A stretch of 64,000 nucleotides of DNA from Actinomycetes bacterium (GTDB lineage Bacteria > Actinomycetota > Aquicultoria > UBA3085 > Oleimmundimicrobiaceae). A model generated the notes under the pieces. The model saw only the letters and a list, made by a program, of their open reading frames with translations, ran no database searches and had not been told where the DNA came from. Position 1 is the first letter of the stretch, and each line of letters starts with the position of its first letter. The DNA lies in NCBI GenBank assembly GCA_030614255.1, contig JAUWKI010000001.1, positions 1,603-65,602 of the forward strand, read 5' to 3'. This document shows positions 5,305 to 58,906 of the stretch, piece by piece. The translations under genes and the position numbers were made by a program.

Positions 5305-6891
5305 ATGACAGAGTTAACCGCAAGCGATTTGCCAAATCTAATAAAAGCTTCTTTAAGCGCTCTTCGGAAACATGAAGAAGAGATAAATAAGCTTAATGTG
5401 TATCCGGTTCCAGACGGAGATACTGGAACAAATATGGTCTTTACCATGCAAGCTGTTTGCGATGAGTTATCGAAGTCTGAATGTGACACAACGGAAAATA
5501 TCTGCAAAATACTTACGCATGGTTCACTTATGGGTGGTCGAGGGAATTCAGGTGTAATTCTTTCCCAGATAATCAAAGGTTTTTGTGAAATTTTGTCTAC
5601 TAAGGAATTTATTGATTCAGTTTCTCTCGCGGAAGCCTTTGAGAATAGTGTGCAGGTTGCCTATAGGGCCATACGAAAACCTGTTGAAGGAACGATGCTC
5701 ACTGTTATCAAGGACGCAGCTGCAGCGGCAAAGAAATTTGATAAAGAAATTGAGCTGGATATATTTTTAGAGTATGTGTTGAGTGAGGCAAAGAAGTCTG
5801 TTATGAGAACACCAGAGCTTTTACCCGTCCTTAAGGAATCCGGAGTCGTTGACGCTGGTGGCTGGGGCCTGGTTCTTATGGGAAGCGGTGTTTTGTCTTC
5901 AATGAGAGGTGAGACAGAACATGAAGAGTTGACAGAATATAATATGCCTACTCTACAACATGTTGAGGATATTTCTCTTGAGTATCAATATTGTACTGAG
6001 TTTCTTTTAAAAAGCACGGGTATAGATATTTCAAAGTTTGAAGAACAGCTTGCACCCTTGGGAGACTCACTCTTGGTTGTCGGTTCGGAAACACTAACTC
6101 GTGTACATATACATACGAATGACCTCGGTACAGTTTTAGATTTGGCAACAAACAAGGGCTCTGTCACGGGAATAAAAATAAATAACATGCAAGAGGAGAG
6201 CGAAGAAAGAGCCGAAAAGATTGCTGAGGATACGAGCGGAATTGGACTCGTTGCTGTAGCTAATGGTGAAGGCGTTAAAAAAATACTATTAAGTTTGGGC
6301 GTCCAAAGAATTGTAAATGGTGGACAAACCATGAATCCAAGCACCGCCGATATTTTGAAAGCGGTTAAGGATGTTAACGCGGCAAAGGTCATCATTCTTC
6401 CGAACAATAAAAACGTAATCTTGGCTGCCCAGAGGGTTTCAGAATTAACAAAAAAAGAGATCGGTGTCGTTCCGACAAAGTCTATTCCCCAAGCTTTTTC
6501 GGCTCTTTTAGCTTTCGACAAGGATAACCCCCTTGCTTTAAATGTTGAAAACATGTCAAGCTTATTATTTCAAGTGAAAACCGGTGAAATAACAAAAGCA
6601 GTCAGGGATTCAAAAACCCCGATTGGCGAAGTTAAAAAAGGTGATTTCATCGGTCTCACCAATCACAAAGTAAGTGTTTCAGGAAAATCTTTTATAAAAA
6701 CGGCTACAAAGTTAATTGATAATATGCTCGATGATGAAAGCGAAGTTGTTACATTTTTGTTTGGTGAGGGGATACAGGAAAAAGATTTAGAGAAATTGTC
6801 AAAAATTATTTCAAAAGAACATTCTGACATAGAGATCGAAATTCATGAAGGAGGACAAGCTCTTTATCCATTAATAATTGGGGTTGAATAA
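5305..6891 (+). CDS. yloV: DAK2-domain fusion protein YloV
   Basis: 528 aa; DGDTGTNM DAK2 motif near the N-terminus; partnered with asp23. Confidence 0.8.
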   Translation: MTELTASDLPNLIKASLSALRKHEEEINKLNVYPVPDGDTGTNMVFTMQAVCDELSKSECDTTENICKILTHGSLMGGRGNSGVILSQIIKGFCEILSTKEFIDSVSLAEAFENSVQVAYRAIRKPVEGTMLTVIKDAAAAAKKFDKEIELDIFLEYVLSEAKKSVMRTPELLPVLKESGVVDAGGWGLVLMGSGVLSSMRGETEHEELTEYNMPTLQHVEDISLEYQYCTEFLLKSTGIDISKFEEQLAPLGDSLLVVGSETLTRVHIHTNDLGTVLDLATNKGSVTGIKINNMQEESEERAEKIAEDTSGIGLVAVANGEGVKKILLSLGVQRIVNGGQTMNPSTADILKAVKDVNAAKVIILPNNKNVILAAQRVSELTKKEIGVVPTKSIPQAFSALLAFDKDNPLALNVENMSSLLFQVKTGEITKAVRDSKTPIGEVKKGDFIGLTNHKVSVSGKSFIKTATKLIDNMLDDESEVVTFLFGEGIQEKDLEKLSKIISKEHSDIEIEIHEGGQALYPLIIGVE

Positions 6892-6970: not shown

Positions 6971-7849
6971 TTGAGCAGCCAAAGACAAATGGAGGTAATA
7001 AAGATGGGAAAAGTCGCAATTGTCACTGACAGTACCGCCGATTTTGAACTTTCCTACTATAAGAAAAATGATGTTTGCATGGTGCCTTTGATGGTTCGTT
7101 TCAAAGAAGAGTCGTTTAAGGATTGGGTTGACATCAAACCAAAAGAATTTTATAAAAAACTAAGGGCCTCAGATGTTCTTCCAAAGACATCTCAGCCAAC
7201 TGTTGCCCAATTTGAGGAAGTTTATAAAAAGCTATCAAAAGATTGCTCGCACATCGTTTCAATTCATATCTCCTCGAAGTTGAGCGGCACGATTCAGTCG
7301 GCCCAAATTGCAAGTGAACATATTGATATCCCCGTTGAGATAATTGATGGAAAATCGGGGTCTGTATTGACCGGTATCTTAGTTGATTTAGCTGTTAGGG
7401 CGCGCGATGATGGAAAAACCGCCGAGGAAATAGTCCAAATTGTCAATAAAGCACGGGATAAAGCAAAATTTTTATTTGTTGTCGATACTTTAAAGTATCT
7501 TCATTTAGGCGGGCGCGTTGGAAAAGCACAAGCGTTAGTTGGCGGCTTACTAAAGGTTAAGCCGATTCTTACGCTGGAAGATGGCTTGGTGGCCCCTTAC
7601 AAGAAAGTAAAAGGAACCAGAAAGGCCATACAGGAAGTTGTTTCTACCGCAAAAGAAAGCATAGACCAAGATAAACCTTATTGTTTAGTTGTTGCGCATG
7701 CTGATGCTCCTGACAATCTAACGTATTTAAAGGAACTCCTCTTGAAAGAAGGGTTTAAATCAAGCCAAACAATCGAGGGCGAGGTTGGTGCTGTTATCGG
7801 AACACATGTCGGCCCCGGGGCTGTCGCATTAGTTTATTATCAGGAATAA
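6971..7849 (+). CDS. DegV-family fatty-acid-binding protein
   Basis: 292 aa; AIVTDSTADF N-terminus typical of DegV/EDD domain proteins. Confidence 0.8.
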   Translation: MSSQRQMEVIKMGKVAIVTDSTADFELSYYKKNDVCMVPLMVRFKEESFKDWVDIKPKEFYKKLRASDVLPKTSQPTVAQFEEVYKKLSKDCSHIVSIHISSKLSGTIQSAQIASEHIDIPVEIIDGKSGSVLTGILVDLAVRARDDGKTAEEIVQIVNKARDKAKFLFVVDTLKYLHLGGRVGKAQALVGGLLKVKPILTLEDGLVAPYKKVKGTRKAIQEVVSTAKESIDQDKPYCLVVAHADAPDNLTYLKELLLKEGFKSSQTIEGEVGAVIGTHVGPGAVALVYYQE

Positions 7850-11257: not shown

Positions 11258-11716
11258 ATGGATATAATGAATTTGATTGACAAAATAGAAGACGTTATTG
11301 CTACTGCACGGAGAGTCCCTTTGAGTAATTCAGTAATGATAAACGAACAGAAAATATTTGAAACTATAGATGAGATGCGTGCTTCTATTCCAGACGAGCT
11401 GAAACAAGCAAGGTGGATTGTCAAAGAGAGACAAGAGATGTTGGCTGAGGCCGAAAAGGAAGCGAGCGCTACAATTGAAGAAGCTCGTAAAAATGCCGAA
11501 CAAATCGCTTCAGAACAAGAAATAGTAAAAATGGCTGAGTCGCAGGCCGACAAAATTCTTTTTGACGCGAAAGAGAAGGAAAGAGAGATTCGCTTAGGGG
11601 CGGAGGACTATGCCGATGAGATGCTTGCTAACCTTGAAGTTAACTTAGGCAAACTTCTTGCTGCAGTTCAGAGGGGAAGAGATAGATTACAGGGTAAAAT
11701 TCAGCCTAAATCCTAA
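11258..11716 (+). CDS. hypothetical coiled-coil protein (charged, Glu/Ala/Lys-rich; ATPase b/G-subunit-like composition)
   Basis: 152-aa ORF with RBS aaagggagg upstream; highly charged heptad-like sequence; no recognisable catalytic motif. Confidence 0.5.
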   Translation: MDIMNLIDKIEDVIATARRVPLSNSVMINEQKIFETIDEMRASIPDELKQARWIVKERQEMLAEAEKEASATIEEARKNAEQIASEQEIVKMAESQADKILFDAKEKEREIRLGAEDYADEMLANLEVNLGKLLAAVQRGRDRLQGKIQPKS

Positions 11717-12366: not shown

Positions 12367-12546
12367 TTGGCTGTTCCAAAGAGAAGAAAGTCTAGGGCAA
12401 AGCGTGATTCTAGACGAGCTAATCATAAAAAAGTTAAATTGGTTATGACAACTGAGTGTCCTCAATGTCATCAGCCCAAGTTACCGCATTATGTTTGTCC
12501 AGAGTGTGGTTATTATGATGGCAAACAAGTTTTGGAGGTTAAGTAG
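12367..12546 (+). CDS. rpmF: 50S ribosomal protein L32
   Basis: TTG-initiated 59-aa ORF (below the ORF-track cutoff): AVPKRRKSRAKRD...CPQCHQPKLPHYVCPECGYY zinc ribbon; RBS aaggaggagg upstream. Confidence 0.85.
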   Translation: MAVPKRRKSRAKRDSRRANHKKVKLVMTTECPQCHQPKLPHYVCPECGYYDGKQVLEVK

Positions 12547-12550
12547 ATAG

Positions 12551-13540
12551 GTGGCTTGCTCTCCAATTACTATTGCAGTTGATGCTATGGGAGGAGATTT
12601 TGCCCCCATAGAAATAGTGAAGGGTTCCCATCTTGCAGCTCAAGAGATGGGAATCAATATATTATTAGTTGGTTTAGAGGGTCAAATAAAAAGTGAATTA
12701 AGTAAATTAAGCCCCTGCAAAAATATACATATTGTGCATGCTCCAGACGTAATAGAGATGGGAGAACATGCTGCCCGAGCCGTAAAATCCAAACCCAATT
12801 CGTCAATTTCGATCGCTGCCCAACTTGTAAAACAAAATGAAGCTAATGCCATGGTGTCAGTTGGCAACACAGGTGCAGCAATGAGCGCCGCCTTTTTAAA
12901 AATTGGAAGGATTGAGGGTATTGCTAGACCTGCAATCGCCGTTGTTATTCCAACCTCAAACAGACCGGTTGTTCTTTTAGACGTAGGGGCAAACACTGAA
13001 TGCAAACCAGAGAACATATTTCAGTTTGCGGTGATGGGGAAGATTTATGCGTCAAAAGTTGTCGGAGTTGATGAGCCCACAATTGGCTTATTGAATGTTG
13101 GAAGGGAATGCGAAAAAGGAAACGAATTTCTTCGAAAATCCTATGATCTTTTGCGATCCGCTGAAGGATTTATAGGGAACGTTGAAGGAAATGATATTCC
13201 TGAAGGAAGAGCCGATGTAATTGTATGCGATGGATTTGCTGGAAATGTGGCGCTGAAATTGATGGAGGGTTTTGCCTCTGTGCTTTTTTCTGAAATAAAA
13301 ATGGCGGCTAAATCATCTTTTTTTGGTAGAATTGGTGGGTTATTACTTGTACCCTCTCTCCAGACATTAAAAAGCAAATTGGACCACGAGAAGTATGGTG
13401 GGGCCTGCCTCTTAGGTATCGATGGGGTCTGTATTGTCGGGCATGGAAAATCTAATGCAAAAGCGGTTAAAAACGCAATTATAGCTGCCGAACAAGCTGT
13501 TTTGGAAGATATTGTTTCTGAAATAAAAAAGGGTATTTAG
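12551..13540 (+). CDS. plsX: phosphate acyltransferase PlsX
   Basis: 329 aa; ITIAVDAMGGDFAP N-terminus typical of PlsX; followed by fabH. Confidence 0.9.
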   Translation: MACSPITIAVDAMGGDFAPIEIVKGSHLAAQEMGINILLVGLEGQIKSELSKLSPCKNIHIVHAPDVIEMGEHAARAVKSKPNSSISIAAQLVKQNEANAMVSVGNTGAAMSAAFLKIGRIEGIARPAIAVVIPTSNRPVVLLDVGANTECKPENIFQFAVMGKIYASKVVGVDEPTIGLLNVGRECEKGNEFLRKSYDLLRSAEGFIGNVEGNDIPEGRADVIVCDGFAGNVALKLMEGFASVLFSEIKMAAKSSFFGRIGGLLLVPSLQTLKSKLDHEKYGGACLLGIDGVCIVGHGKSNAKAVKNAIIAAEQAVLEDIVSEIKKGI

Positions 13541-13563: not shown

Positions 13564-14562
13564 GTGTCTGTCGGAATAGTTGGAGTAGGTTCTTATTTAC
13601 CTCATAAAATACTTACCAATTTCGATTTAGAAAAGATGGTAGATACGAGTAACGAATGGATTCGAACTCGCACCGGTATTTCAGAACGAAGAATCGTAGA
13701 TGACGATGTCAATATTTCTGATATAGCTGTTGAAGCGGCTAAAAAAGCTCTCTTAAATGCTGGTCTTGAGATCAAGGATATTGATTTGATAATTTTGGCA
13801 ACTTGCTCGCCTGAGATGGTGATGCCTTCAACATCGTGTCTCGTTCAAAAAAAGTTGGGGGCAAAAACTATCCCAGCTTTCGATATGCTTGCTGGCTGCA
13901 CAGGCTTGATATATGCAATTACCACCGGGGCTCAATTTATAGAAACAGGTATGTATAAAAAAGTTCTGGTTATTGGAGCTGACGCTCTTTCGAGGCATCT
14001 AGACTGGACCGATCGTGCAACATGTGTATTATTTGGTGATGGCGCTGGAGCGGTAGTGCTGGGCGAAGTTGAGGATGGATATGGTATTCTGTCAAATTAT
14101 TTGGCGGCAACCGGAGCAGGGGCTGAGCTCTTGAGAATTCCGGCGGGTGGATCAGGAATGCCTGCGACAGAAGAGTCATTTGAAAAAAAGCTCCATTGTA
14201 TTCAAATGAGTGGCGGGGAAGTTTTTAAATTTGCTAGTAGAGCTTTACCTCAGGCCACAAAGGCCGTACTAAAAAGGGCGAATTTAACGTTAGCGGATGT
14301 AAAATATATAATTCCTCATCAAGCAAACATTAGGATTTTAGAAACAGCTGCTAAGAAGCTTGGGGTTGATTTCAATAAGCTCATCAAAAATATTGACAAG
14401 TACGGAAACACGTCAACAGCTTCTATAGCAATTGCTCTGGATGAGCTTCAGAGGGCAAACAAGATACATGAGGGAGACATCTTGCTTCTGGTTGGCTTTG
14501 GCGCAGGATTAACCTGGGGAGCCAATGTGATTAAATGGGGCGGAAACAAAAAAAACAGATGA
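13564..14562 (+). CDS. fabH: 3-oxoacyl-ACP synthase III FabH
   Basis: Active-site Cys in LAGCTGLIYA; His/Asn in IPHQANIRIL; 332 aa. Confidence 0.9.
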   Translation: MSVGIVGVGSYLPHKILTNFDLEKMVDTSNEWIRTRTGISERRIVDDDVNISDIAVEAAKKALLNAGLEIKDIDLIILATCSPEMVMPSTSCLVQKKLGAKTIPAFDMLAGCTGLIYAITTGAQFIETGMYKKVLVIGADALSRHLDWTDRATCVLFGDGAGAVVLGEVEDGYGILSNYLAATGAGAELLRIPAGGSGMPATEESFEKKLHCIQMSGGEVFKFASRALPQATKAVLKRANLTLADVKYIIPHQANIRILETAAKKLGVDFNKLIKNIDKYGNTSTASIAIALDELQRANKIHEGDILLLVGFGAGLTWGANVIKWGGNKKNR

Positions 14563-14572
14563 TGGCAAAGGG

Positions 14573-15739
14573 GTGGCCAGTGTGGACTATTTTCTAACAG
14601 AAGAACAACAAATGATAAAGGATCTAGCAAAAAAAATAGCTAATGAAAAAGTAATTCCCGTAAGGGCTAGACTGGACGAAGAAGAAGAATTTCCTTGGGC
14701 TATTATGAAAGATTTGGCTCAGGCGGATTTACTTGGTCTTTATATACCGGAGGAATATGGAGGTGTCGATTTCGGCTGTTTTGAAACGATACTCGTGGTT
14801 GAAGAGCTGAGTAGAGCGTGTTGTGGCGTGTCGGTAAGTTATGCCGCAAGTGCCCTCGGGGCATATCCTATCCTTTTATTCGGTTCAGAAGAGCAGAAGA
14901 AAAAGTATCTACCTGACATAGCTTCCGGTAAGAAGCTCGGGGCCTTTGGTCTAACGGAAGCCAATGCGGGGAGTGATGCTTCTGCAATTCAGACAAGAGC
15001 CGAAAAAGATGGAGATTTTTACATCCTCAACGGAACCAAACAATGGATAACAAATGGCGGCGAAGCAGAAATCTACACAATAATTGCCATGACAAATAAG
15101 GACAAAGGAAGTCGGGGAGCCACTGCTTTTATTGTTGAAAAAGGAACGCCGGGTTTCTCGTTCGGGAAAAAAGAGAAAAAGCTTGGTATACGATGCTCCA
15201 CAACAAGAGAGCTGATTTTCGAAAATTGTCGAATACCCAAGGAAAACATTTTAGGAAAAGAAGGGATGGGCTTTATAGTTGCCATGAGAACTTTGGATAT
15301 GACTCGTCCGGGAATTGGGGCTCAAGGTGTTGGGGTTGCTCAAGGAGCTTTCGATGCAGCTCTGGATTATTCGTGTCAGAGGATACAGTTTGACCAACCG
15401 ATATCTTCGTTTCAAATAATACAGCACATGCTTGCAGATATGGCCATTCAGATTGAAGCCGCTCGTGCACTAGTTTACGCGACTGCAAAGATGATTGATG
15501 GTGGAGCTAAGAATTTTTCGAAAGAATCCGCAATGGCTAAAACCTTTGCCTCTGATATGGCGATGGAAGTTACTATCAACGCTGTTCAGGTGATGGGTGG
15601 TTGTGGCTATATGCGTGAGTATCCAGTCGAGAAAATGATGAGGGATGCAAAGATTATTCAAATTTACGAGGGGACGAATCAGGTTCAGAGAAATGTGATT
15701 GCTCTTCAGTTAATCAAGGAGAATATGGGCAAAAAATAG
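14573..15739 (+). CDS. butyryl-CoA-dehydrogenase-like acyl-CoA dehydrogenase (start may be GTG 14582)
   Basis: ACAD fold with catalytic Glu in YEGTNQVQ; FLTEEQQ N-terminus; followed by etfB/etfA. Confidence 0.85.
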   Translation: MASVDYFLTEEQQMIKDLAKKIANEKVIPVRARLDEEEEFPWAIMKDLAQADLLGLYIPEEYGGVDFGCFETILVVEELSRACCGVSVSYAASALGAYPILLFGSEEQKKKYLPDIASGKKLGAFGLTEANAGSDASAIQTRAEKDGDFYILNGTKQWITNGGEAEIYTIIAMTNKDKGSRGATAFIVEKGTPGFSFGKKEKKLGIRCSTTRELIFENCRIPKENILGKEGMGFIVAMRTLDMTRPGIGAQGVGVAQGAFDAALDYSCQRIQFDQPISSFQIIQHMLADMAIQIEAARALVYATAKMIDGGAKNFSKESAMAKTFASDMAMEVTINAVQVMGGCGYMREYPVEKMMRDAKIIQIYEGTNQVQRNVIALQLIKENMGKK

Positions 15740-15756
15740 ATATTTGGAGGACGATT

Positions 15757-16542
15757 TTGAATATTATTGTTTGCATAAAACAAGTTCCTGATACAACCAA
15801 GGTAAAAATAGACCCGGAAACCAACACGTTAGTAAGAGAAGGGGTAGAGAGCATAATCAACCCGTTCGATATATATGCGTTGGAGGAAGCGATTAGATTA
15901 AAGGAGAAAATTGGTGGAAACGTTACTGTGCTGACCATGGGTCCCCCTCAAGCTGCGGAAGTATTAAGAGAGGCGATTGCGATGGGCGCAGACGATGTTT
16001 ATTTACTATCGGATAAAGCTTTTGCTGGTGCTGATACCCTTGCAACTTCTTATACCCTATCGAAAGGTATCGAAAAAGTAGGGCAGTTCGATCTCATAAT
16101 TTGTGGGAAACAGACGATGGATGGAGACACGGCACAAGTGGGACCCGAAATTGCTCAGAAATTAGGAATACCGGTTGTTACGTACGTGAGCAAAATTGAA
16201 GACATAGAAAATGGTCAAATCAAACTTAAGCGAATGGTAGAAGATGGTTATGAGGTAATCGAAACGGAAACACCTTTGTTAATGACGGTCATAAAGGAGA
16301 TAAATGAACCCAGGGTGCCATCTCTTCGGGGGATAATGAAGGCAAAAAAAATAGAGATACCGATCTGGGATGCAAGCGATATTGGAGCAGAAGGTGAGAA
16401 AATTGGTCTTTCCGGCTCTCCAACCCAAGTTGTTCGAATTTTTGCTCCGGAGGTTTCCAAAGAGGGCGAGATTTTAGAGGGAGAACCAACGGAAATTGCC
16501 GAAAAGCTTATTTTGAAGCTAAAAAAAGGAAAGGTTATCTAA
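15757..16542 (+). CDS. etfB: electron transfer flavoprotein beta subunit EtfB
   Basis: NIIVCIKQVPDT N-terminus and the 261-aa EtfB pattern. Confidence 0.85.
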   Translation: MNIIVCIKQVPDTTKVKIDPETNTLVREGVESIINPFDIYALEEAIRLKEKIGGNVTVLTMGPPQAAEVLREAIAMGADDVYLLSDKAFAGADTLATSYTLSKGIEKVGQFDLIICGKQTMDGDTAQVGPEIAQKLGIPVVTYVSKIEDIENGQIKLKRMVEDGYEVIETETPLLMTVIKEINEPRVPSLRGIMKAKKIEIPIWDASDIGAEGEKIGLSGSPTQVVRIFAPEVSKEGEILEGEPTEIAEKLILKLKKGKVI

Positions 16543-16582
16543 GTAGTTTTTGAGCTAGAATCTTACTTACCAGGAGGAGTTT

Positions 16583-17773
16583 TTGAGCATTAAAATTGAT
16601 TTAAGTAAATGCACGGGTTGTAAGCTCTGCGTAAAAGCTTGCATATATAGTGCGATTGATGTTGTTGAAAAGAAAGCATATATAAACAACAACTGCACTT
16701 TATGTGGCGCGTGTGTCTCAGCTTGTAAATATGAAGCCATTTCTATCTCAAAGAAAAAGAAAACTGCTTTCGACGAGGGTGATTATGAGGGCGTCTGGGT
16801 TTTTGCTGAGCAAAAGCAAGGCAAATTAGCAGGGGTAGCTTCTGAACTTCTCGGTGAAGGGAGAAGATTGGCCGATGAATTAGGAGTTAAACTCTCTGCC
16901 ATCTTGCTTGGAGAAAAAATTAACGGCTTAGGCAAAGAGCTTATATTCTATGGAGCAGATAAGGTTTACATTGTTGATAGTCCAATCCTGAAAGATCGTC
17001 TCGATGAGACCCATGCAGATGTTCTTGTCCAACTAATTCGCGAGCATAAACCAGAAATTTTTTTGGCTGGGGCGACTTCTTTTGGACGTTCATTGATTCC
17101 CAGGGTCGCGGCAACTTTGGAGACGGGACTTACTGCTGATTGCACAGGTCTTGCTATCGACAAGGAAAACAAATTTTTATTACAAACTCGCCCGGCATTT
17201 GGTGGAAATATCATGGCTACCATAATCTGTCCAAACAAGAGGCCGCAAATGGCCACAGTCAGACCCAAAGTGATGAAACGTGCCCAAAGAGACGATACGA
17301 GAAGTGGTGAAATAATCGAGGAGACGATATTGAATCCCATTTCTTCAAGAGTAAAATTGTTGGGCTTTATTGAAGAGCTGAGCGATAAAGTAAATTTGGA
17401 AGAAGCGGAAATTATTGTCGCGGGCGGAAGAGGATTAGGCAAAGCTGACAATTTTAAACTTATTCACGAGATGGCCTCAATTTTAGGAGCAGCCGTAGGT
17501 GCTTCAAGGGCGGCGGTTGATGCCGAATGGATATCCTATGCTCACCAGGTTGGACAAACCGGCAAGACCGTCTGTCCAAAACTATATATTGCTTGTGGGA
17601 TTTCCGGAGCCGTTCAACACCTTGCCGGGATGCAAACTTCTGATTATATTGTCGCCATAAATAAGGATCCGGACGCTCCGATTTTTGATGTTGCCAACTA
17701 TGGTATAGTTGGGGACTTGTTTGAAATAATTCCGGTCATCACAACCAAATTGAAAGAGATTAATGGAGGTTGA
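16583..17773 (+). CDS. etfA: electron transfer flavoprotein alpha subunit EtfA with N-terminal 2x[4Fe-4S] ferredoxin domain
   Basis: CTGCKLCVKAC and CTLCGACVSAC cluster motifs in the first 60 aa, then a canonical EtfA FAD domain. Confidence 0.85.
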   Translation: MSIKIDLSKCTGCKLCVKACIYSAIDVVEKKAYINNNCTLCGACVSACKYEAISISKKKKTAFDEGDYEGVWVFAEQKQGKLAGVASELLGEGRRLADELGVKLSAILLGEKINGLGKELIFYGADKVYIVDSPILKDRLDETHADVLVQLIREHKPEIFLAGATSFGRSLIPRVAATLETGLTADCTGLAIDKENKFLLQTRPAFGGNIMATIICPNKRPQMATVRPKVMKRAQRDDTRSGEIIEETILNPISSRVKLLGFIEELSDKVNLEEAEIIVAGGRGLGKADNFKLIHEMASILGAAVGASRAAVDAEWISYAHQVGQTGKTVCPKLYIACGISGAVQHLAGMQTSDYIVAINKDPDAPIFDVANYGIVGDLFEIIPVITTKLKEINGG

Positions 17774-17776
17774 TGA

Positions 17777-18721
17777 TTGAGTAAAAAAATTGCTTTTATC
17801 TTTCCAGGGCAAGGTTCTCAATATATAGGGATGGGAAAGGATTTAAAAGAGTCCATCAGTGAATTGGCCGATATCTTTAAGCAAGCCGACGAAGTCTTGA
17901 AAAAGAAGATATCAAATATTTGTTTTGAGGGCCCTGAGAGTGAGCTCGGCAAAACCATCAATACCCAACCTGCGATTTTTACAGTTAATCATGTTTGTTA
18001 TGTCGCATTAAAACTAAATGGAATAGAGCCGGATATAGTAGCCGGACACAGTTTGGGAGAGTATAATGCGCTTGTCGCGGCCGGTGTCTTTGATTTTGAA
18101 ACCGGGTTGTGTCTGGTTGCGAAAAGAGCTCAATTTATGGAGAAAGCGGCCTCGAGAAAGCTAGGCAAAATGGCTGCGATTATTGGATTAGATTCGAAAA
18201 TTGTTGAAAAAATAGTTGAGTCATTAAAAAAAAGAGGAGTAATTAATATAGCGAACTATAATTGTCCGGGACAACTTGTAATATCGGGAGAAAGTTCGCT
18301 TATCGAAGAGGCTGGTTGTCTCTTAAGACAGAGTGGAGCAAAAAGGGTAATTGAACTCCCGGTAAGCGGTGGATTCCACTCTAAATTAATGGATGAAGCA
18401 GAGCGTGAATTCTCTAAAGTCTTAAATGAGACGCCTTTTTCTAAGCCTGAATGTGGCATAATTTCAAATTACACGGCGAGATGTTCAATTAATCCAATGG
18501 ATTTAAAGATGGCTTTAAGACATCAAATTACCGGGTCAGTCCGTTGGGAGCAATCAATTAAAAAAATTCAATCGCTTGAAATTAATAAATTTATAGAAGT
18601 GGGTCCAAAAAAAATTTTAACGGGTCTAGTTGGCAGAATTACTCAAGCAATTTTATTTGATGTAAGCGATGTCGATACTTTAGAAAAAACCATTTTTGAA
18701 ATAGAAGGAGGTTTTGAATGA
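17777..18721 (+). CDS. fabD: malonyl-CoA:ACP transacylase FabD
   Basis: GHSLGEY active-site serine motif; AFIFPGQGSQ N-terminus. Confidence 0.9.
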   Translation: MSKKIAFIFPGQGSQYIGMGKDLKESISELADIFKQADEVLKKKISNICFEGPESELGKTINTQPAIFTVNHVCYVALKLNGIEPDIVAGHSLGEYNALVAAGVFDFETGLCLVAKRAQFMEKAASRKLGKMAAIIGLDSKIVEKIVESLKKRGVINIANYNCPGQLVISGESSLIEEAGCLLRQSGAKRVIELPVSGGFHSKLMDEAEREFSKVLNETPFSKPECGIISNYTARCSINPMDLKMALRHQITGSVRWEQSIKKIQSLEINKFIEVGPKKILTGLVGRITQAILFDVSDVDTLEKTIFEIEGGFE

Positions 18722-19461
18722 TATTTAAGGACAAAGTTGTTCTTGTTACGGGCAGCACAAGGGGAATTGGGAAAGAGATATGTTTGAAGTTTGCTGAGTT
18801 GGGAGCTGATATTGTTATAAACGATATCGGAAACGAGGATCAAGCAGAATTGCTAATTACCGAGATAAATGAATTTGGCGGAAAGGCAATTTTTGTCAAG
18901 GCCAATGTCGCGGTTTTTGACGAAGCATCTTCTCTAATCGAGCAGGCTATTGAAGAGATGGGCAAGATAGATATTTTGGTTAACAATGCGGGGATAACTC
19001 GCGATAATCTTTTAATTAGAATGAAAGAAGATGAATGGGATGCTGTGCTAAATGTTAACTTAAAAGGAACATTTAACTGCATGAAAGCAGTTTCGCGTCA
19101 CATGATGAAAAGGCGAGAGGGTGTAATGATTAATCTGGCGTCTGTTGTAGGGGTTATAGGCAACGCAGGACAATCAAATTACTCTGCTTCAAAAGCCGGG
19201 GTAATTGGCCTAACAAAAACTGTGGCAAAAGAGCTTGCGTCTCGCGGAATTAGAGTCAATGCTGTTGCGCCGGGATTTATTCAAACCGAAATGACTAAAA
19301 AGTTACCGGACGAGATAAGGGCTAAGGTGATAGACAACATTCCGCTTGCTGAATTCGGCACGTCGAGGGATGTGGCTAACCTGGTAGCATTTCTTGCATC
19401 AGAAGATGCTAAATATATTACTGGGCAGGTTGTAAATATAGACGGTGGAATGGTAATGTAA
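18718..19461 (+). CDS. fabG: 3-oxoacyl-ACP reductase FabG
   Basis: TGSTRGIG Rossmann motif; NNAGI; catalytic YSASKAG. Confidence 0.9.
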   Translation: MIFKDKVVLVTGSTRGIGKEICLKFAELGADIVINDIGNEDQAELLITEINEFGGKAIFVKANVAVFDEASSLIEQAIEEMGKIDILVNNAGITRDNLLIRMKEDEWDAVLNVNLKGTFNCMKAVSRHMMKRREGVMINLASVVGVIGNAGQSNYSASKAGVIGLTKTVAKELASRGIRVNAVAPGFIQTEMTKKLPDEIRAKVIDNIPLAEFGTSRDVANLVAFLASEDAKYITGQVVNIDGGMVM

Positions 19462-19494: not shown

Positions 19495-19731
19495 ATGTCG
19501 CAGGAAGTTTTTGACAAAGTTAAGGGAATTATTGTTGAGCAGTTGGGAGTCGATGAATCTGCTGTTAAAAATGAAACATCATTTACTGATGATCTGGGAG
19601 CGGATTCGCTGGACATTATTGAGCTGGTAATGGCTTTGGAAGAAGAGTTTGGTTTAGAAATATCCGACGAAGATGCAGAAAAAATAGCAACCGTTGACAA
19701 AGCAGTTGAATACATAGAAAACAACTCATAA
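19495..19731 (+). CDS. acpP: acyl carrier protein
   Basis: 78 aa; DLGADSLD phosphopantetheine-attachment serine motif. Confidence 0.9.
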
Positions 19732-20732
19732 TGGAGCTTAAAATGGAATTACCAGAATTAAAAATAGGTAAATTTAGGGCTAAAATTCCCATTGTACAGG
19801 GTGGAATGGGTGTGAGGATTTCTCTTGCACCTTTGGCGGCAGCCGTGGCCAACGAAGGGGGAATTGGATTAATTGCGGCTTCAGGAATTCACCCCCCGGA
19901 ACTTGCTGAACAAATTAAAGAAGCGAAAAAGTTGTCCAATGGGATAATAGGAATAAATATAATGGTCGCGATTCGTGAATTTAAAGACTTGATTACAGTA
20001 GCCATGCGCGAGAAAATTGATTTAATTGTCGCTGGCGCAGGTTTTTCTCGAGATATTTTTGCTATGGGGAAAGAAAATGATGTTCCAATTGTTCCCATTG
20101 TTTCGTCAGAAAGAGTAGCCCGTCTTGCGGAAAGATTTGGAGTATCGGCTGTTATAGTCGAGGGGAAAGAGGCAGGTGGTCATCTAGGCACAGATAAACC
20201 CCTTTTATCGATATTACCCGGGATAATTAAGAGTGTGAGGATACCGGTAATAGCAGCCGGAGGAATTCTTAAGGGTTCGGATATTGCTAAGGTCCTTTCT
20301 ATGGGAGCTGGAGGTGTTCAGATGGGCACCCGTTTTGCAGCCAGTGAGGAGAGCAGTGCGGCGCCCGCTTGGAAGGAAGCATATGTGAGCTCGAAAGCCG
20401 AAGATGTTGTTCTCATCAAAAGCCCTGTTGGGATGCCTGGAAGAGCGTTAAAAACAAAATTTGTTAAAGATCTTTTTGCAAATAAAATACCGGCCTTTAG
20501 TGATATAAAAAAGTGTGTAACCTGTTTGAAATATTGTAAAAGAAATTACTGCATCATAGAGGCGCTCGAAAATGCTCAGATGGGTAATATGGAAAAAGGT
20601 CTCGTTTTTTGCGGTGAACGCGTAGGGGAAATAAAGGATATTCTACCGGTTAAAAAAATTATTGCCAATCTTGTTGAAGAGTTTAAAGAAAGTGTGGCCG
20701 GAGGGAGAAAAGGGTGCAAAGAAGAGTCGTAA
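19731..20732 (+). CDS. fabK: enoyl-ACP reductase II FabK (FMN, nitronate-monooxygenase fold)
   Basis: [12 protein letters not shown]/FabK signature; sits between acpP and fabF; start overlaps the acpP stop (TAATG). Confidence 0.8.
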
Positions 20733-21952
20733 TAACTGGTCTTGGACCTGTTACGCCAATTGGAACAGGAAAAACGACTTTTTGGAAATTACTGACCGAA
20801 GGGAAGTCAGGAATAGGAAAGATAACTTCTTTTGATTCGGACGGATATAACTCTCGTATAGCAGGTGAAATTAAAGACTTTGACCCAGTTGACTATCTTG
20901 ATGCAAAAGAAGTACGTAGAATGGATAGATTTTGTCAATTAGCGCTGGCTGCCACCGAATTAGCTCTCGAAGACGCGGATTTAAAAATAACGGATTCGAT
21001 TGCTAATGAAATCGGGGTTATTGTGGGTTCAGGCATAGGTGGTCTGAAAACACTGGAAGAACAACATAAAATTTTATTACAAAAAGGCCCTAAAAAGATC
21101 AGTCCATTTCTTGTGCCAATGATGATACCCGATATTGCCGCCGGAAACATCTCAATCGCCTTTGGGGCGAAGGGTCCAAATTTTTGCACAGTGACTGCTT
21201 GTGCGTCTGCTACCCATGCGATTGGAGAGGCTTTTGAGGCTGTAAAACGAGGTTCTGCCGATATTTGCATAACGGGTGGAACCGAGGCACCCGTAACACC
21301 ACTAGGTGTCGCGGGATTTTGTGCAGCCCGCGCACTTTCAACAAGAAATAACGAACCAACCAGGGCAAGCAGGCCTTTCGATGCGAAACGAGATGGGTTT
21401 GTTATTGCCGAGGGTGCAGGAATAATAATTTTAGAGACACTTGAAAACGCTATAAACAGAGGAGCTCATATCTATGCCGAGGTGGTCGGTTATGGTGCGA
21501 CCGGAGACGCATACCATATTACGGCACCGGCTCCAGGTGGTGAAGGAGCTGCTCGTACCATGCAAAAAGCTATCGATGAGTCCGGTTTAGATTATGAACA
21601 GGTAGATTATATAAATGCGCATGGTACATCGACTCTTTATAATGATGAATTTGAAACATTGGCCATCAAGAATGTTTTTGGGAAGCATGCTTATAATTTA
21701 GTGGTCAGTTCAACTAAGTCTATGACCGGTCATGCTCTAGGAGCAGCCGGGGGTATAGAAATGATTGTTTGTGCTCTCTCAGTTGAAAAAAACATTATTC
21801 CCCCAACGATAAACTACGAATACCCTGATCCAAAATGTGATTTAAATTACGCACCTAATCAAGCCATTAAAAAGACGGTTTTGGTTGCTATGTCAAACTC
21901 TTTGGGTTTTGGTGGTCATAACGCTAGTATCATAATAAAAGCGGTTACGTAA
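20714..21952 (+). CDS. fabF: 3-oxoacyl-ACP synthase II FabF
   Basis: [10 protein letters not shown]-terminus; active-site Cys in [11 protein letters not shown]; INAHGTST and GHALGAAG motifs. Confidence 0.9.
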
Positions 21953-21960
21953 AGGTCGCT

Positions 21961-22182
21961 TTGAGAAATCCTGAAAATAACTTAGTTAAAGTTTATACGG
22001 CCCATGGGAGAATAGAAGCTTCAATCGTGAAATCAAAACTTGAGTCCGAAGATATCTCAGTAATCCTAAAAAGTGGTGCTGAGATTTTTGGTATAACCGT
22101 TGATGGATTGGGAGCCATTGAGGTTTTAGTTTTAAAGCACGAGATTGAAAGGGCCAAAAAAATACTCTTTGACCAGCGGTGA
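21961..22182 (+). CDS. small DUF2007-like protein (putative signal-transducing protein)
   Basis: 73-aa ORF ending right at the rnc start; sequence resembles the DUF2007 family; no catalytic motif. Confidence 0.45.
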   Translation: MRNPENNLVKVYTAHGRIEASIVKSKLESEDISVILKSGAEIFGITVDGLGAIEVLVLKHEIERAKKILFDQR

Positions 22183-22186
22183 TGAT

Positions 22187-22891
22187 ATGTTAAATAAAGA
22201 CAATGTGAATAGAGCCGAAGAGTGTTTAAACATTGTCTTCGTTGATAAAGAACTGATAAAAGTAGCCTTAACCCACAGATCTTTCGCTGCAGAAGCGAGT
22301 GACAAAGTTGATGTGAACGAAAGATTGGAATTTTTAGGCGATGCTGTTCTAGAATTTGTCGTTACCGACTTTCTATTTAATCACTATCCTGAACTCGAAG
22401 AAGGTGATTTGGCCATGCTTAGAGCCAACATTGTAAATTCAGATGTATTGGCTAAATTGGCGGGCAATATAGGCTTCGGAGAATGTATTCTTATGGGGAG
22501 AGGGGCTGAGATTGCAGGTGGTAGAAGGCAGACATCAATTTTGGGTGACTGCTTGGAAGCAATTTTAGGCGCTGTTTATCTGGACCAAGGTATCAAAAGA
22601 ACCAAAGAATTTATTCTAGGGATTTTTCAAGAGGAAATTGCGAAACAAGCCTCAAAAGAGAAATACTTGGATTTAAAAACTAATCTGCAAGAATATACAA
22701 TGAAGAAGTTAAAAGTACTACCTTTGTATAGAATAACCCGAGAAGAGGGTCCTGTGCACAAAAGGGCCTTCTTTGCTGAAGTTAGCGTCGGGGGGAATGT
22801 TTGGGGCAAAGGTAAAGGTAAGAGTAAAAAAAGGGCTGAACAGGAAGCGGCAAAGAAGGCCCTTTTAAAGCTTCAAAAGTTACATGGCTAA
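22187..22891 (+). CDS. rnc: ribonuclease III (true start likely ATG 22187 within the ORF beginning at 22145)
   Basis: RNase III signature ERLEFLGDAVLEFVVTDFLF; C-terminal dsRBD. Confidence 0.9.
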   Translation: MLNKDNVNRAEECLNIVFVDKELIKVALTHRSFAAEASDKVDVNERLEFLGDAVLEFVVTDFLFNHYPELEEGDLAMLRANIVNSDVLAKLAGNIGFGECILMGRGAEIAGGRRQTSILGDCLEAILGAVYLDQGIKRTKEFILGIFQEEIAKQASKEKYLDLKTNLQEYTMKKLKVLPLYRITREEGPVHKRAFFAEVSVGGNVWGKGKGKSKKRAEQEAAKKALLKLQKLHG

Positions 22892-23125
22892 TACATGAGG
22901 AGCGGAAGCTACCAGTAGAGTATAGTTAACACTAAAGGGTATCACCGAGATGGTGGTGCTATTTTTATAATAGGTATCAAAAATTTATTCGACTCCTTGA
23001 ATTGCCAAGTCTGAGTGACTTTAAAAGGTTGGGACAGGGACTTTGACGGTCAAATTTCGTCATCATTCAATTTCTGTAAGTTCTAACTATGTTAAAATAG
23101 TTTAAGATTTAAAGGAGGAATACAT

Positions 23126-37327: not shown

Positions 37328-37432
37328 AACTCTTATTCAGAGAGGTGGAGGGACTGGCCCTGTGAAACCTCGGCAACCTACCCAGATGGGGTGTGGTGCT
37401 AATTCCTGCAGAGGAACCTGGAAGATAAGAGG
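37328..37432 (+). promoter_or_regulatory. SAM-I riboswitch (S-box) leader of metK
   Basis: ctcttattcagagaggtggagggactggccctgtgaaacctcggcaacc ... ggtgctaattcctgcagagg ... gataagag matches the SAM-I consensus, including the P1 helix ctcttat/ataagag. Confidence 0.85.
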
Positions 37433-49964: not shown

Positions 49965-49970
49965 TATAAT
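49965..49970 (+). promoter_or_regulatory. putative -10 box (TATAAT) of the rib operon promoter
   Basis: Perfect tataat immediately upstream of the FMN riboswitch 5' end; weak -35. Confidence 0.3.
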
Positions 49971-50108
49971 CTTCGAGAAAAGGTGACCCTGAATATTTAT
50001 TTTGGGAATTCCTGACCGGCGGTAAAGCCCGCTAACTTTGCAGAGTTTCTGTGGAGCCGATTCGGTGAAATTCCGAAGCCGACAGTAAAGTCTGGATGGG
50101 AGAAGAGT
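49971..50108 (+). promoter_or_regulatory. FMN riboswitch (RFN element)
   Basis: cttcgagaaaaggtgaccctgaa ... ttcctgaccggcggtaaagcccgc ... gaagccgacagtaaagtctggatgggagaag matches the RFN consensus, including the conserved 3' segment; upstream of ribD. Confidence 0.85.
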
Positions 50109-50114
50109 AATTAA

Positions 50115-56451: not shown

Positions 56452-58473
56452 GTGAAACCCAAGAATGAATTAATAGAACAAAGAGAATTTCATGCAATTC
56501 TCTCCAGTATCGCTGATGGAGTAATATTAACAGACCGCAAAGGCAGAATTATACATATAAGCTCGCCAGCCGAGTCCATGTTGAACATTGAAGCCGATGA
56601 GATTGTGGGAAAAAGTATATCCATCTCTACTTTAATAGGAAAAGAACGTCAAACCAAGAAAGGTTTAGTTTTTTGTTGGGAAGAAAAGGATTGCAAAGAG
56701 AAAAGTTGCCCTGTCTATAAGAGAGATAACTCCCGGTGTTGGACTGTCACCGACACCTGTCCTAATAGTGTTAAACAAGGAGTTTTTAGAAAAAAGATAA
56801 GACATTGTCAAACCTGCGAGGTATTTGAGCGGAATTCAAAAATACTCGAAGAACCCGCGGTAATGCTAGTTAAGGAAGTATCAATAAGTGAGCCCCAGAA
56901 TAAGGTTTTGCAAATAAAGACCAATCCAATTGTTGACGAGGAAGGAAATTTTCTCGGTTTAGTGAGAACTCTTCATGACATTACGCTTGAGCGGGAAATG
57001 AGTGCCATGAAGGATGAGTTTGTTTCGACCGTATCACATGATTTTCGCATTCCTTTAACCTCAATAAAGGGCTACGTTGACCTCATCTTGGATGGTGAAG
57101 CTGGAGAATTTAACGAAATGCAAAAAGAGTTTTTAACAATCGTCAAACAGAACAGTGATCGACTCATCAGTTTAATTAACGATTTTTTAGATATCTCGAG
57201 AATTGAGTCTGGGAAGATGAATTTTAACATTAAACCCGAGAATTTAAAGTCACTAGTTCAAGAGGTTGTTAACACTTTTCAGAAATTTATCGATGAAAAG
57301 AAAATGGAAATCGACTTAAAATTATCAGACAAGCTGCCAAAAGTATTAGTCGATCATGACAGAATAATCCAAGTTCTCAATAACCTGGTAAGTAACGCGG
57401 TCAAATATACTCCTCCTATGGGAAAAGTTAAAGTAGCTGTCATTAAGAAAAAGAACTATATTGTCGTTTCCGTATCCGATACCGGCGTTGGAATTTCTAC
57501 CAAAGATCAAGAAAAACTGTTTACAAAATTTTATAGGGTAGATAGCTCCCTTATAAAAGAAACGGGTGGAAGTGGGTTAGGTCTATCCATATGTAAAACG
57601 ATAATTGAACGACATGGGGGGAAAATCTGGGTCAAAAGCGAAGAGAATAAGGGTAGCACGTTTAGTTTTTCCTTACCGGCATTAAAAACAGAAGTTAAAC
57701 CTCAACTAATAAAACAGGGAATGAGGATACTCGTAGTCGATGATGAACCTGATATATCGAAGCTAATTCAACTTTACCTTGAGAAAGAAGGATATTATGT
57801 ACTCAAAGCTTTCGATGGATTAAAGGCTCTTGAAATGGCCAAAAAAGAGCATCCCGACCTTATCACTCTAGATATAATGATGGGCAAAGTTGACGGATTC
57901 GAGGTTTTAAAAAAGCTTAAAGAAGATACTCACACGGCCTCTATTCCTGTAATTGTTTTGTCCGTTATTTTAGACGAAAAGAGAGGATACCGATTAGGAG
58001 CAGCCGACTATCTTCCAAAATCGGTTGACAAGAAAAAGCTTATTGAAAGTATCAACAAAATAATTGGAGAAAAGGGTCAGCCGGAAAAAGAGAAGAGAGT
58101 CTTAGTTGTTGATGATGATAGAGACATTGTAAGTTTCATTGAGTTTAACCTCAGAAAAGCAAATTTTGATGTGCTTAAAGCCTATAATGGTATCGAAGCA
58201 CTTAAAATTTTAAAAAAACAAAAACCCGATATTATCCTTCTCGATCTTAGAATGCCAGAAATGGACGGATATGAGGTGCTTGGTGCGATAAAGAAGGATA
58301 AGGGGCTATCTGGAATTCCCGTTATTATCATGACCGCTTACGATCTTGACCGCGAAAAGGCCGAAGTTTTGGATTTAGCTGTAGACAAAGTTTCAAAACC
58401 TTTTTCGATGAGAATGCTTACATCGAGAATAAAAGAGACTTTAGGAAACGACAAGGGTGAAGAAGATGGATAA
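56452..58473 (+). CDS. hybrid sensor histidine kinase: PAS - Cys-rich module - HisKA - HATPase_c - REC - REC
   Basis: H-box STVSHDFRIPLTSIKGY; N/G boxes (LVSNAVKYT, DTGVGIS, GGSGLGLSICK); two receiver domains (VVDDEPD...LDIMM; VVDDDRD...LDLRMPEMDG); GTG start after RBS ggaatagga. Confidence 0.85.
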   Translation: MKPKNELIEQREFHAILSSIADGVILTDRKGRIIHISSPAESMLNIEADEIVGKSISISTLIGKERQTKKGLVFCWEEKDCKEKSCPVYKRDNSRCWTVTDTCPNSVKQGVFRKKIRHCQTCEVFERNSKILEEPAVMLVKEVSISEPQNKVLQIKTNPIVDEEGNFLGLVRTLHDITLEREMSAMKDEFVSTVSHDFRIPLTSIKGYVDLILDGEAGEFNEMQKEFLTIVKQNSDRLISLINDFLDISRIESGKMNFNIKPENLKSLVQEVVNTFQKFIDEKKMEIDLKLSDKLPKVLVDHDRIIQVLNNLVSNAVKYTPPMGKVKVAVIKKKNYIVVSVSDTGVGISTKDQEKLFTKFYRVDSSLIKETGGSGLGLSICKTIIERHGGKIWVKSEENKGSTFSFSLPALKTEVKPQLIKQGMRILVVDDEPDISKLIQLYLEKEGYYVLKAFDGLKALEMAKKEHPDLITLDIMMGKVDGFEVLKKLKEDTHTASIPVIVLSVILDEKRGYRLGAADYLPKSVDKKKLIESINKIIGEKGQPEKEKRVLVVDDDRDIVSFIEFNLRKANFDVLKAYNGIEALKILKKQKPDIILLDLRMPEMDGYEVLGAIKKDKGLSGIPVIIMTAYDLDREKAEVLDLAVDKVSKPFSMRMLTSRIKETLGNDKGEEDG

Positions 58474-58906
58474 GACGAAAATACTAATTGTGGATGATGA
58501 TTTAAATATTTCCCGATTACTTAAGTTTAAGCTCAACAAAGAGGGCTATGATACATTAGAGGCCCACGATGGAGAAGAAGCGCTGATAAAAGCAAATTCC
58601 TTCAGACCAAACTTAATATTACTTGATATTATGATGCCCAAGATGAGTGGTTGGGAGGTTAATAAAGAGCTAAGGAAACATCCGGAACTGAGAAGAGTTC
58701 CCGTAATAATGGTAACCGCGGTGGACCGATTAGATGAGCAGCTTAAAAGTCTTAGTGAGAAAAATATTAAGGACTATATAACTAAACCTTTCAATTTTTC
58801 GGAACTAGTAAATACGGTAAAACGAGTTTTGGGTCAACAAATTAAGAACAATTCAGAGAGTAGCTTTAGTTTAGGCAAAAATAAGCAAGGAGAGCTGAAT
58901 GAGTAA
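58466..58906 (+). CDS. single-domain (CheY-like) response regulator receiver
   Basis: ILIVDDD...ILLDIMMPKMSG...TKPF receiver motifs; no output domain; start overlaps the stop of the upstream kinase. Confidence 0.8.
   Translation: MDKTKILIVDDDLNISRLLKFKLNKEGYDTLEAHDGEEALIKANSFRPNLILLDIMMPKMSGWEVNKELRKHPELRRVPVIMVTAVDRLDEQLKSLSEKNIKDYITKPFNFSELVNTVKRVLGQQIKNNSESSFSLGKNKQGELNE

Follow-up and report, generated by a model that had tools for sequence, protein, structure and literature searches.

A Bcd-like acyl-CoA dehydrogenase with EtfB and EtfA in the fabK slot of a fatty-acid synthesis operon, a candidate enoyl-ACP reductase of anaerobic bacteria

Four types of enoyl-acyl carrier protein (ACP) reductase are known, FabI, FabL, FabV and FabK, which are antibiotic targets and are also used as markers in genome-based reconstructions of fatty-acid synthesis. 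The genes of Bcd-EtfAB, the complex of butyryl-CoA dehydrogenase with an electron-transferring flavoprotein (Etf), are located with crt, hbd and thl in butyrate operons. We have analysed a stretch of 64,000 nucleotides (the window) from an Actinomycetes bacterium (assembly GCA_030614255.1, contig JAUWKI010000001.1, positions 1,603 to 65,602). In the window, genes for a Bcd-like acyl-CoA dehydrogenase (ACAD), EtfB and EtfA, together called the trio here, stand between fabH and fabD in an operon of type II fatty-acid synthesis (FASII). Profile assignments of the open reading frames (ORFs) agreed with the initial annotation on the identity, position and coordinates of these three genes. On balance, we lean slightly towards a reading in which the encoded complex, which would be of the type of Bcd and of CarCDE (the caffeyl-CoA reductase-Etf of Acetobacterium woodii) and probably reduces ferredoxin, serves as the enoyl-ACP reductase of FASII and has replaced FabK by non-orthologous displacement.

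Comparative synteny of the fab operons in relatives, which the initial annotation had suggested as a check, revealed an exchange in the slot between fabH and fabD. The window operon encodes a further flavoprotein, between acpP and fabF, which is a member of the nitronate monooxygenase (NMO) family and is called NMO#2 here. Its orthologues (about 60% identity) were found in Heliomicrobium modesticaldum (L006; loci are given by our own numbers), in an Aquicultorales metagenome-assembled genome (MAG; L007), in a Selenomonadales MAG (L008) and in two further contigs (L164, L165). All five operons have the order plsX-fabH-NMO#1-fabD-fabG-acpP-NMO#2-fabF-(DUF2007)-rnc, and in the three that were tested (L006-L008) NMO#1 is a true FabK, with 488-506 bits on the FabK equivalog model TIGR03151 (cutoff 453). 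The Aquicultorales are a sister order within Candidatus (Ca.) Aquicultoria, the class of the nearest named relative of the window, Ca. Oleimmundimicrobium sp., the ACAD of which is 92% identical to ours. Since the small DUF2007 gene is common to the window operon and the Aquicultorales operon (L007), we consider the two operons orthologous. The same slot is filled by ACAD-etfB-etfA in the window and also in Ca. Oleimmundimicrobium (L001), two Joint Genome Institute contigs (L002, L003), another actinobacterial MAG (L009), a MAG of Margulisiibacteriota (L036) and L163. Each of the 11 compared operons has either FabK or the trio; none has both, and none has neither. The gene order is kept in relatives with merely 53-80% protein identity. 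The trio sits in the slot of the enoyl-ACP reductase gene fabK.

Searches for other enoyl-ACP reductases gave the following results. In the window, we found no FabI, FabL, FabV or FabZ gene and no acc gene; the E. coli FabI and FabZ sequences used as tblastn queries were approximate but adequate for detection, and as a positive control, with the metagenome scan described below, the FabZ query picked up FabZ in another locus (L113). A search with the Aquicultorales FabK returned no match named Subteraquimicrobiales or Oleimmundimicrobium and no contig in common with the ACAD matches. A metagenome scan anchored on NMO#2, with generic search patterns, found only distant NMO/FabK genes (27-44% identity), almost none of them in fab operons, and added no operon to the comparison of FabK with ACAD.

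The association between the trio and FASII extends over many phyla. We scanned for ACAD with one genome per GTDB species, which gave 80 loci at 67-78% identity, and labelled their neighbouring genes by tblastn with the window operon proteins. ACAD lies beside FASII genes in 43 of the 80 loci; when only loci with flanks of 2.5 kb or more on each side are counted, the figure is 30 of 51. The fab-linked arrangements are fabH-ACAD-etfB-etfA-fabD (9 loci), fabF-(rnc)-ACAD(-etfBA) (9), fabH-ACAD-etfB-etfA-fabG (7), fabH-ACAD interrupted by the contig end (6), plsX-ACAD followed by fabD, fabG or etfB (5), ACAD-etfBA-fabD (4) and others (3). Canonical FabK occurs in none of the 80 loci, nor does any FabI-like gene except fabG. 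Among the fab-linked hosts are Actinomycetota, Nitrospirota (Thermodesulfovibrionia), Thermodesulfobacteriota, Thermodesulfatator, Desulfofervidaceae, Syntrophorhabdaceae, 'Deltaproteobacteria', Margulisiibacteriota, Saganbacteria, Omnitrophota and Edwardsbacteria. In a neighbour-joining tree, ACAD follows the taxa. Linkage to fab genes occurs throughout this tree, apart from a clade of Bacillota, in which ACAD is linked to etfBA only, and a derived clade of Nitrospiraceae, in which it stands alone. No other protein of the operon is as conserved across phyla as ACAD: the identities given above compare with 38-60% for PlsX, FabH, FabD, FabG and FabF. In five loci (L010, L083, L084, L052, L080), the genes that separate ACAD from etfB or flank the module are rpiB, glyA and genes for hypothetical proteins, a SEC-C protein and RNase H; an additional partner that is conserved, for instance a membrane Fe-S oxidoreductase, was not found among them.

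In some Nitrospirota, ACAD-etfB-etfA-fabD lies apart from the other fab genes (L012, 10001-14199; L017, 131-11700; L030; L031), and in L017 etfB-etfA-fabD are still joined about 8 kb from ACAD. FabD seems to travel with the Etf genes.

The GC content of the trio, overall and at third codon positions (GC3), matches that of the adjoining genes. A recent horizontal insertion was considered and is rejected on the grounds of this native composition and of the ACAD tree following phyla. The initial annotation had described the trio as inserted in the operon, a description that is misleading in view of the composition and the order kept in relatives; the association of the trio with FASII is old and conserved and not a local insertion.

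The sequences of the three subunits, each of which is full length against its profiles, indicate the type of the complex. ACAD has complete N-terminal, middle and C-terminal domains (PF02771, PF02770, PF00441), and its true start is probably the GTG at 14582. Its closest solved relative is the Bcd of Clostridioides difficile (5ol2_C; E 9e-127, 56% identity, 427 bits), and the catalytic Glu in the (I)YEGT motif of ACAD is aligned with that of 5ol2_C. ACAD scores below every NCBIfam equivalog cutoff, the nearest model being AcrC (454 bits, cutoff 640); the Etf subunits also stay below the AcrA/B/C equivalog models (EtfB, 259 of 475 bits; EtfA, 374 of 600 bits).

The five best PDB matches of EtfB are all bifurcating Etfs, namely CarD (6fah_B, 1.8e-84), LctB, 4kpu_B, 7koe_A and 5ol2_B, with E values from 1e-70 to 1e-84, whereas the matches to non-bifurcating Etfs range from 1e-24 to 1e-30 (human and Paracoccus about 1e-29). 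EtfB has the N-terminal VCIKQVPDT and the DGDTAQVGP stretch in common with CarD and LctB; human ETFB has DDDCNQTGQ at the latter position. On these sequence features EtfB is assigned to the bifurcating group, the members of which have a second flavin adenine dinucleotide (FAD) and an NADH site instead of AMP. EtfA begins with a ferredoxin domain (residues 3-60) with two CxxCxxCxxxC motifs for two [4Fe-4S] clusters, and it aligns over its full length (residues 1-393), ferredoxin domain included, to CarE (6fah_A, E 4.5e-126). The domain is present in 42 of the 43 EtfA genes linked to the ACAD clade. Judged by these matches, the trio is a predicted CarCDE/Bcd-type module, competent for bifurcation and for the reduction of enoyl thioesters. 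In L163 (4013-6013), the deposited etfA call has 334 aa and follows etfB after a gap of 210 nt; the gene caller probably missed the ferredoxin domain there, and automated annotations may under-report this domain of EtfA.

The exchange in the fabK slot, together with the mutual exclusivity in orthologous operons, argues for an enoyl-ACP reductase, and it favours one of the roles suggested in the initial annotation, that of a bifurcating enoyl reductase coupled to lipid synthesis. The linkage of the ACAD clade to FASII genes in more than half of the species loci points the same way, and so do the closest solved relatives (Bcd 5ol2 and CarCDE 6fah), which are physiological enoyl-CoA reductase complexes. 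Genes of beta-oxidation or of butyrate metabolism are absent from the window and the loci, as are FabI-like genes except fabG, which suggests an enzyme of FASII, and the native composition of the trio and the high conservation of ACAD suggest a resident component of this pathway. We infer from this evidence the reductive direction, ACP and not CoA as the carrier, the acceptance of long chains and bifurcation to ferredoxin.

By analogy with Bcd-EtfAB and CarCDE, the bifurcating FAD of EtfB would be reduced by NADH. The high-potential electron would pass through the FAD of EtfA to the FAD of ACAD, which after two rounds would reduce trans-2-enoyl-ACP to acyl-ACP, and the low-potential electron would leave through the two N-terminal [4Fe-4S] clusters of EtfA to ferredoxin (Fd) or flavodoxin. 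The net reaction would be 2 NADH + Fd(ox) + enoyl-ACP -> 2 NAD+ + Fd(red) + acyl-ACP. Since NADH reduces enoyl thioesters in a strongly exergonic reaction, part of the energy that FabK or FabI dissipates would be saved as reduced ferredoxin in each elongation cycle, and such a recovery would suit the energy-limited anaerobes that carry the module.

Several points weigh against the assignment of the trio as enoyl-ACP reductase. On the one hand, the substrate is in question. ACAD-family enzymes normally use CoA thioesters, and the ACAD sequence bears no sign of ACP specificity. The net charge gives no hint of ACP docking, with a mean of -1.9 for fab-linked ACADs, about -4.4 for the others, -3 for C. 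difficile Bcd and -5 for the window ACAD. The ACAD helix that matches Gln95/Glu99 of medium-chain acyl-CoA dehydrogenase has a one-residue deletion relative to Bcd, so that the register is ambiguous and the acyl pocket is not interpretable. Bifurcation by the trio is predicted from homology, and the related acryloyl-CoA reductase-Etf of Clostridium propionicum is reportedly non-bifurcating. On the other hand, other reductases may be present. FabI is often encoded away from fab clusters, and since our negatives for these enzymes cover the window and the loci, an unlinked FabI, FabL or FabV may be encoded elsewhere in the genome. NMO#2 in the same operon could itself reduce enoyl-ACP. Also, 37 of the 80 loci are not fab-linked, and the window ACAD is 72-75% identical to Bacillota and Elusimicrobia members that are linked to etfBA only.

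A broader proposal can be made more tentatively, as a possibility that we would not yet count on. The trio may represent a fifth, unrecognised class of enoyl-ACP reductase, a bifurcating ACAD-EtfAB with a ferredoxin domain that would carry out the final step of every FASII elongation cycle, yield one reduced ferredoxin per two-carbon unit and replace FabK or FabI. Such a class would have a wide distribution, with vertical inheritance, among phyla of strict anaerobes, for which we name Aquicultoria, Thermodesulfovibrionia, Desulfobacterota-type lineages, Margulisiibacteriota and Omnitrophota, among others.

The identity of NMO#2 bears on the first of three other explanations. The initial annotation had called this gene fabK, but its product fails the FabK equivalog model (Table 1), as it stays far below the cutoff, and its orthologues P0164, P0145 and P0213 reach 208-211 bits on the same model. 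The C-terminal 117 aa match the Fe-S subdomain of Helicobacter pylori FabX (E 1.9e-12), which in that enzyme takes the place of the NAD(P)H motif, better than FabK (6.5e-6). Four cysteines of this part (C262, C265, C269, C274) and His151 are invariant in 55 homologues, and the four cysteines are not present in true FabK. The motif is CxxCxxxCxxxxC, with the family form CxxCLKxCxxx[YF]C. The ligands of the FabX [4Fe-4S] cluster include C304, C308 and C320 (PMC8626469), and these three of the four ligands align with cysteines of NMO#2. An AlphaFold model of NMO#2 (mean predicted local distance difference test, pLDDT, 92) has FabX as its top fold match (template-modelling score, TM, 0.85-0.87), with FabK almost level. 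Profile scores and cysteine pattern assign NMO#2 as a FabX-like paralogue and not a canonical FabK; probably it takes part, as an Fe-S flavoprotein, in the anaerobic synthesis of unsaturated fatty acids, or serves as a reductase of an alternative kind. On the one hand, H. pylori FabX (7E1Q) and NMO#2 are both NMO-family flavoproteins of fatty-acid synthesis with a C-terminal cysteine subdomain; on the other hand, FabX has the spacing Cx3Cx3Cx11C, the overall identity is about 33%, and the electron acceptor of FabX is O2, which is impossible for the strict anaerobe that hosts NMO#2. The NMO#2 family is widespread, in Aquicultoria, Heliobacteria, Negativicutes, Anaerolineae and Margulisiibacteriota, and in many operons it stands alongside true FabK. 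Members were located at 9001-9945 in L006, 9001-9981 in L007 and 9001-9945 in L008, and the NCBI label of the family is merely 'nitronate monooxygenase'.

Considering that NMO#2 belongs to the FabK/FabX family, with a conserved flavin mononucleotide (FMN) barrel and an invariant histidine of the catalytic type besides its cysteines, it may be the enoyl-ACP reductase of the operon. The trio would then have another role in lipid synthesis, as a redox partner that supplies or drains the Fe-S cluster of NMO#2 or as an acyl-ACP dehydrogenase/isomerase for unsaturation by FabX-like backtracking. Dehydrogenation of acyl thioesters, with transfer of the electrons to Etf, is the natural reaction of ACADs, and the Fe-S domain of EtfA could in principle exchange electrons with the NMO#2 cluster. 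Fusobacterium nucleatum has a FabX homologue besides FabK, and over-expression of this homologue partly rescued FabK inhibition (PMC11091888). However, NMO#2 stands beside a true FabK in the five operons with NMO#1, so it is not the FabK equivalent there, and ACAD is mutually exclusive with FabK but not with NMO#2. Moreover, most operons with a fab-linked ACAD (Nitrospirota, delta-type lineages, Omnitrophota) lack any NMO gene, indicating that the trio is independent of NMO#2. We consider this explanation unlikely.

In the second explanation, the trio would be a Bcd-EtfAB of the usual catabolic or fermentative kind (for butyrate formation or for syntrophic or respiratory fatty-acid oxidation) that happens to be encoded or co-regulated with lipid genes; this appears quite improbable to us. 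A FASII linkage in 43 of 80 species over many phyla is beyond chance, and the window trio is enclosed in a compact operon of housekeeping genes, where junctions overlap or span 3 nt. The high identity of ACAD to an authentic Bcd would fit a catabolic enzyme, as would the Etf subunits, which have all sequence hallmarks of butyrate-pathway Etfs, and many of the host lineages are fermenters, syntrophs or sulfate reducers. ACAD-etfBA without a nearby fab gene was found in 19 of the 80 loci; however, crt, hbd and thl are never beside ACAD in the loci, and even the unlinked copies, those of Bacillota included, stand amid unrelated housekeeping genes. Genes for crotonase, for 3-hydroxyacyl-CoA dehydrogenase, for thiolase and for keto-acid oxidoreductase were not found in the window or beside the trio in the examined related loci. 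The initial annotation had named a common, characterised arrangement with a catabolic role as the finding that would speak against its proposal; the arrangement is indeed common, but a literature search, largely without subscription-journal papers, did not turn up any paper that describes ACAD or Etf as part of FASII, and the context is not catabolic.

The other role suggested in the initial annotation, the supply of acyl-CoA starters for FabH by reduction of crotonyl-CoA or of branched or cyclic enoyl-CoAs, is very improbable, because, although the trio is directly downstream of fabH and ACAD is nearest to the short-chain Bcd, with a weaker likeness to cyclohexane-1-carbonyl-CoA dehydrogenase (370 bits on the NCBIfam model, cutoff 650), no gene that forms enoyl-CoA (thiolase, hbd, crotonase or a shikimate-derived route) is in the window or beside the trio in the examined loci, ACAD persists in fab operons where fabH is not its neighbour (plsX-ACAD-fabD types) and behind fabF-rnc at the distal end, butyryl-CoA and acetyl-CoA primers give the same products, which makes conservation in more than eight phyla hard to explain, and an exact replacement of fabK is not predicted.

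The layout of the operon in the window is given in Table 1. As the initial annotation had claimed, the genes are tightly packed; from rpmF to rnc, consecutive genes are separated by -38 to +40 nt. GGAGG-type ribosome-binding sites lie upstream of etfB, etfA, fabD, fabG and acpP. An internal terminator or promoter would have spoken against co-transcription, but in a terminator scan of the region terminator-like patterns occurred at chance level (11 against 10.2 expected), with none in the operon junctions, and the sole convincing hairpin with a T-run comes after rnc. The tight or overlapping junctions and the lack of an internal terminator are consistent with the proposed co-transcription of the trio with the fab genes. 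The rpmF gene was read from the sequence, and in the relatives L001 and L002 PF01783 (rpmF) is called at the same position.

Table 1. Coordinates of features in the 64,000-nucleotide window. All operon genes (yceD to rnc) are on the + strand; their ORFs, except rpmF, were assigned with Pfam and NCBIfam profiles.
Feature	Coordinates (nt)	Strand	Evidence or remark
fakA (fatty acid kinase)	5305-6891		about 5 kb upstream of fab cluster
DegV/FakB-type fatty-acid-binding protein	6971-7849		follows fakA
152-aa ORF	11258-11716		no Pfam match; between coaD and yceD
yceD	just before rpmF	+	cluster spans window 11.6-22.9 kb
rpmF (ribosomal protein L32)	12368-12547	+	3 nt before plsX, directly upstream of fab genes
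plsX (phosphate acyltransferase)	12551-13540	+	TIGR00182, 358 bits (cutoff 243)
fabH (beta-ketoacyl-ACP synthase III)	13564-14562	+	NF006829, 430 bits (cutoff 249)
ACAD (Bcd-like acyl-CoA dehydrogenase-family flavoprotein)	14573-15739	+	three ACAD domains
etfB (Etf small subunit, bifurcating type by sequence)	15757-16542	+	best PDB matches all bifurcating Etfs
etfA (Etf large subunit)	16583-17773	+	Fer4, ETF and ETF_alpha domains
EtfA ferredoxin domain	16589-16762	+	within etfA
fabD (malonyl-CoA:ACP transacylase)	17777-18721	+	TIGR00128, 326 bits (cutoff 261); starts 3 nt past etfA stop codon
fabG (3-oxoacyl-ACP reductase)	18718-19461	+	TIGR01830, 343 bits (cutoff 298); 4-nt overlap with fabD
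acpP (acyl carrier protein)	19495-19731	+	NF002148, 120 bits (cutoff 71)
NMO#2 (NMO-family flavoprotein, FabX-like FabK paralogue by sequence)	19731-20732	+	TIGR03151, 199 bits (cutoff 453)
fabF (beta-ketoacyl-ACP synthase II)	20714-21952	+	Ketoacyl-synt N- and C-terminal domains
small DUF2007 gene	21961-22182	+	PF09413; same position in L007
rnc (RNase III)	22145-22891	+	Pfam; final gene of tight cluster
hairpin with T-run	22938-22960		after rnc
SAM-I riboswitch	37330-37431		90 bits; before metK
FMN riboswitch	49965-50111		93 bits; before ribD-ribE-ribBA-ribH
two paralogous hybrid histidine kinases	56452-60938		673 and 679 aa
single-domain response regulator	58457-58906		between the two hybrid kinases

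Besides the operon, the window holds housekeeping genes, among them thiamine genes, fakA/degV, recG, coaD, smc, ftsY/ffh, rimM/trmD/rplS, dprA, metK, priA, def/fmt and the rib operon. The order of fakA and the DegV/FakB-type gene is the same in Ca. Oleimmundimicrobium (L001), and exogenous fatty acids are probably also activated, via PlsX. An unannotated ORF equal in length and position to the 152-aa ORF is present in L001, L002 and L163; it could encode a lineage-specific regulator at the place where Firmicutes have fapR. Two ordinary riboswitches, of the S-adenosylmethionine (SAM-I) and FMN classes, were identified, and no tRNA gene was found in the 64 kb. The two hybrid histidine kinases each have HisKA, HATPase and two receiver domains, and with the response regulator they may form a phosphorelay. 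Nearly all genes are on the + strand, and the GC skew is positive in each 2-kb bin up to 62 kb (0.03 to 0.28); in the last bin, with a minus-strand gene for a TrkA-type channel, it is -0.13. This is consistent with a leading-strand housekeeping region.

If the trio is indeed the enoyl-ACP reductase, genome reconstructions that score such FASII as incomplete, or that assign these genes to butyrate metabolism or beta-oxidation, would be wrong for much of the uncultured anaerobic biosphere. A core anabolic pathway would include flavin-based electron bifurcation, with a recovery of energy that is of importance to organisms living at the thermodynamic limit, and an ACAD active on ACP-bound substrates would be added to primary metabolism. 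The type of complex is known, but its proposed role as an enoyl reductase of FASII with ferredoxin and its wide distribution appear to be unreported.

In comparison with known systems, CarCDE has the same three subunits as the trio; CarE is the top solved match of EtfA, including the domain with two [4Fe-4S] clusters, and CarD is that of EtfB. On the other hand, the window ACAD is nearer to Bcd than to CarC (303 bits), and the CarCDE genes are part of an operon for caffeate respiration, the substrate of the enzyme being an aromatic CoA ester, whereas the trio has a FASII context. The Bcd-EtfAB complexes of C. difficile (5OL2) and Acidaminococcus fermentans (4L1F/4KPU) share with the trio the order acad-etfB-etfA, the catalytic Glu, the bifurcating-type EtfB and the core domains of EtfA, but their EtfA is without the ferredoxin domain that is present in the trio. 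No crt, hbd, thl or car genes accompany the trio in the window or the examined related loci; its neighbours are FASII genes instead. MbtN/FadE14 and the prolyl-peptidyl carrier protein (PCP) dehydrogenases (4IRN) demonstrate that the ACAD fold accepts substrates tethered by phosphopantetheine to ACP or PCP, as our proposal requires. However, they are distant from the window ACAD, which stays below the threshold of the MbtN-type acyl-ACP dehydrogenase model NF037942 (66 bits, cutoff 700) and matches 4irn with E 1e-60, and they are oxidative enzymes of secondary metabolism and not of FASII. FabK occupies the same genomic slot between fabH and fabD and catalyses the reaction that we propose for the trio, but it is unrelated in fold and cofactors, being an FMN TIM barrel of one subunit, dependent on NAD(P)H and with no Etf, Fe-S cluster or ferredoxin output. 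With their ACAD and ETF folds, the subunits of the trio are not FabK homologues, and the proposed equivalence is functional and positional only.

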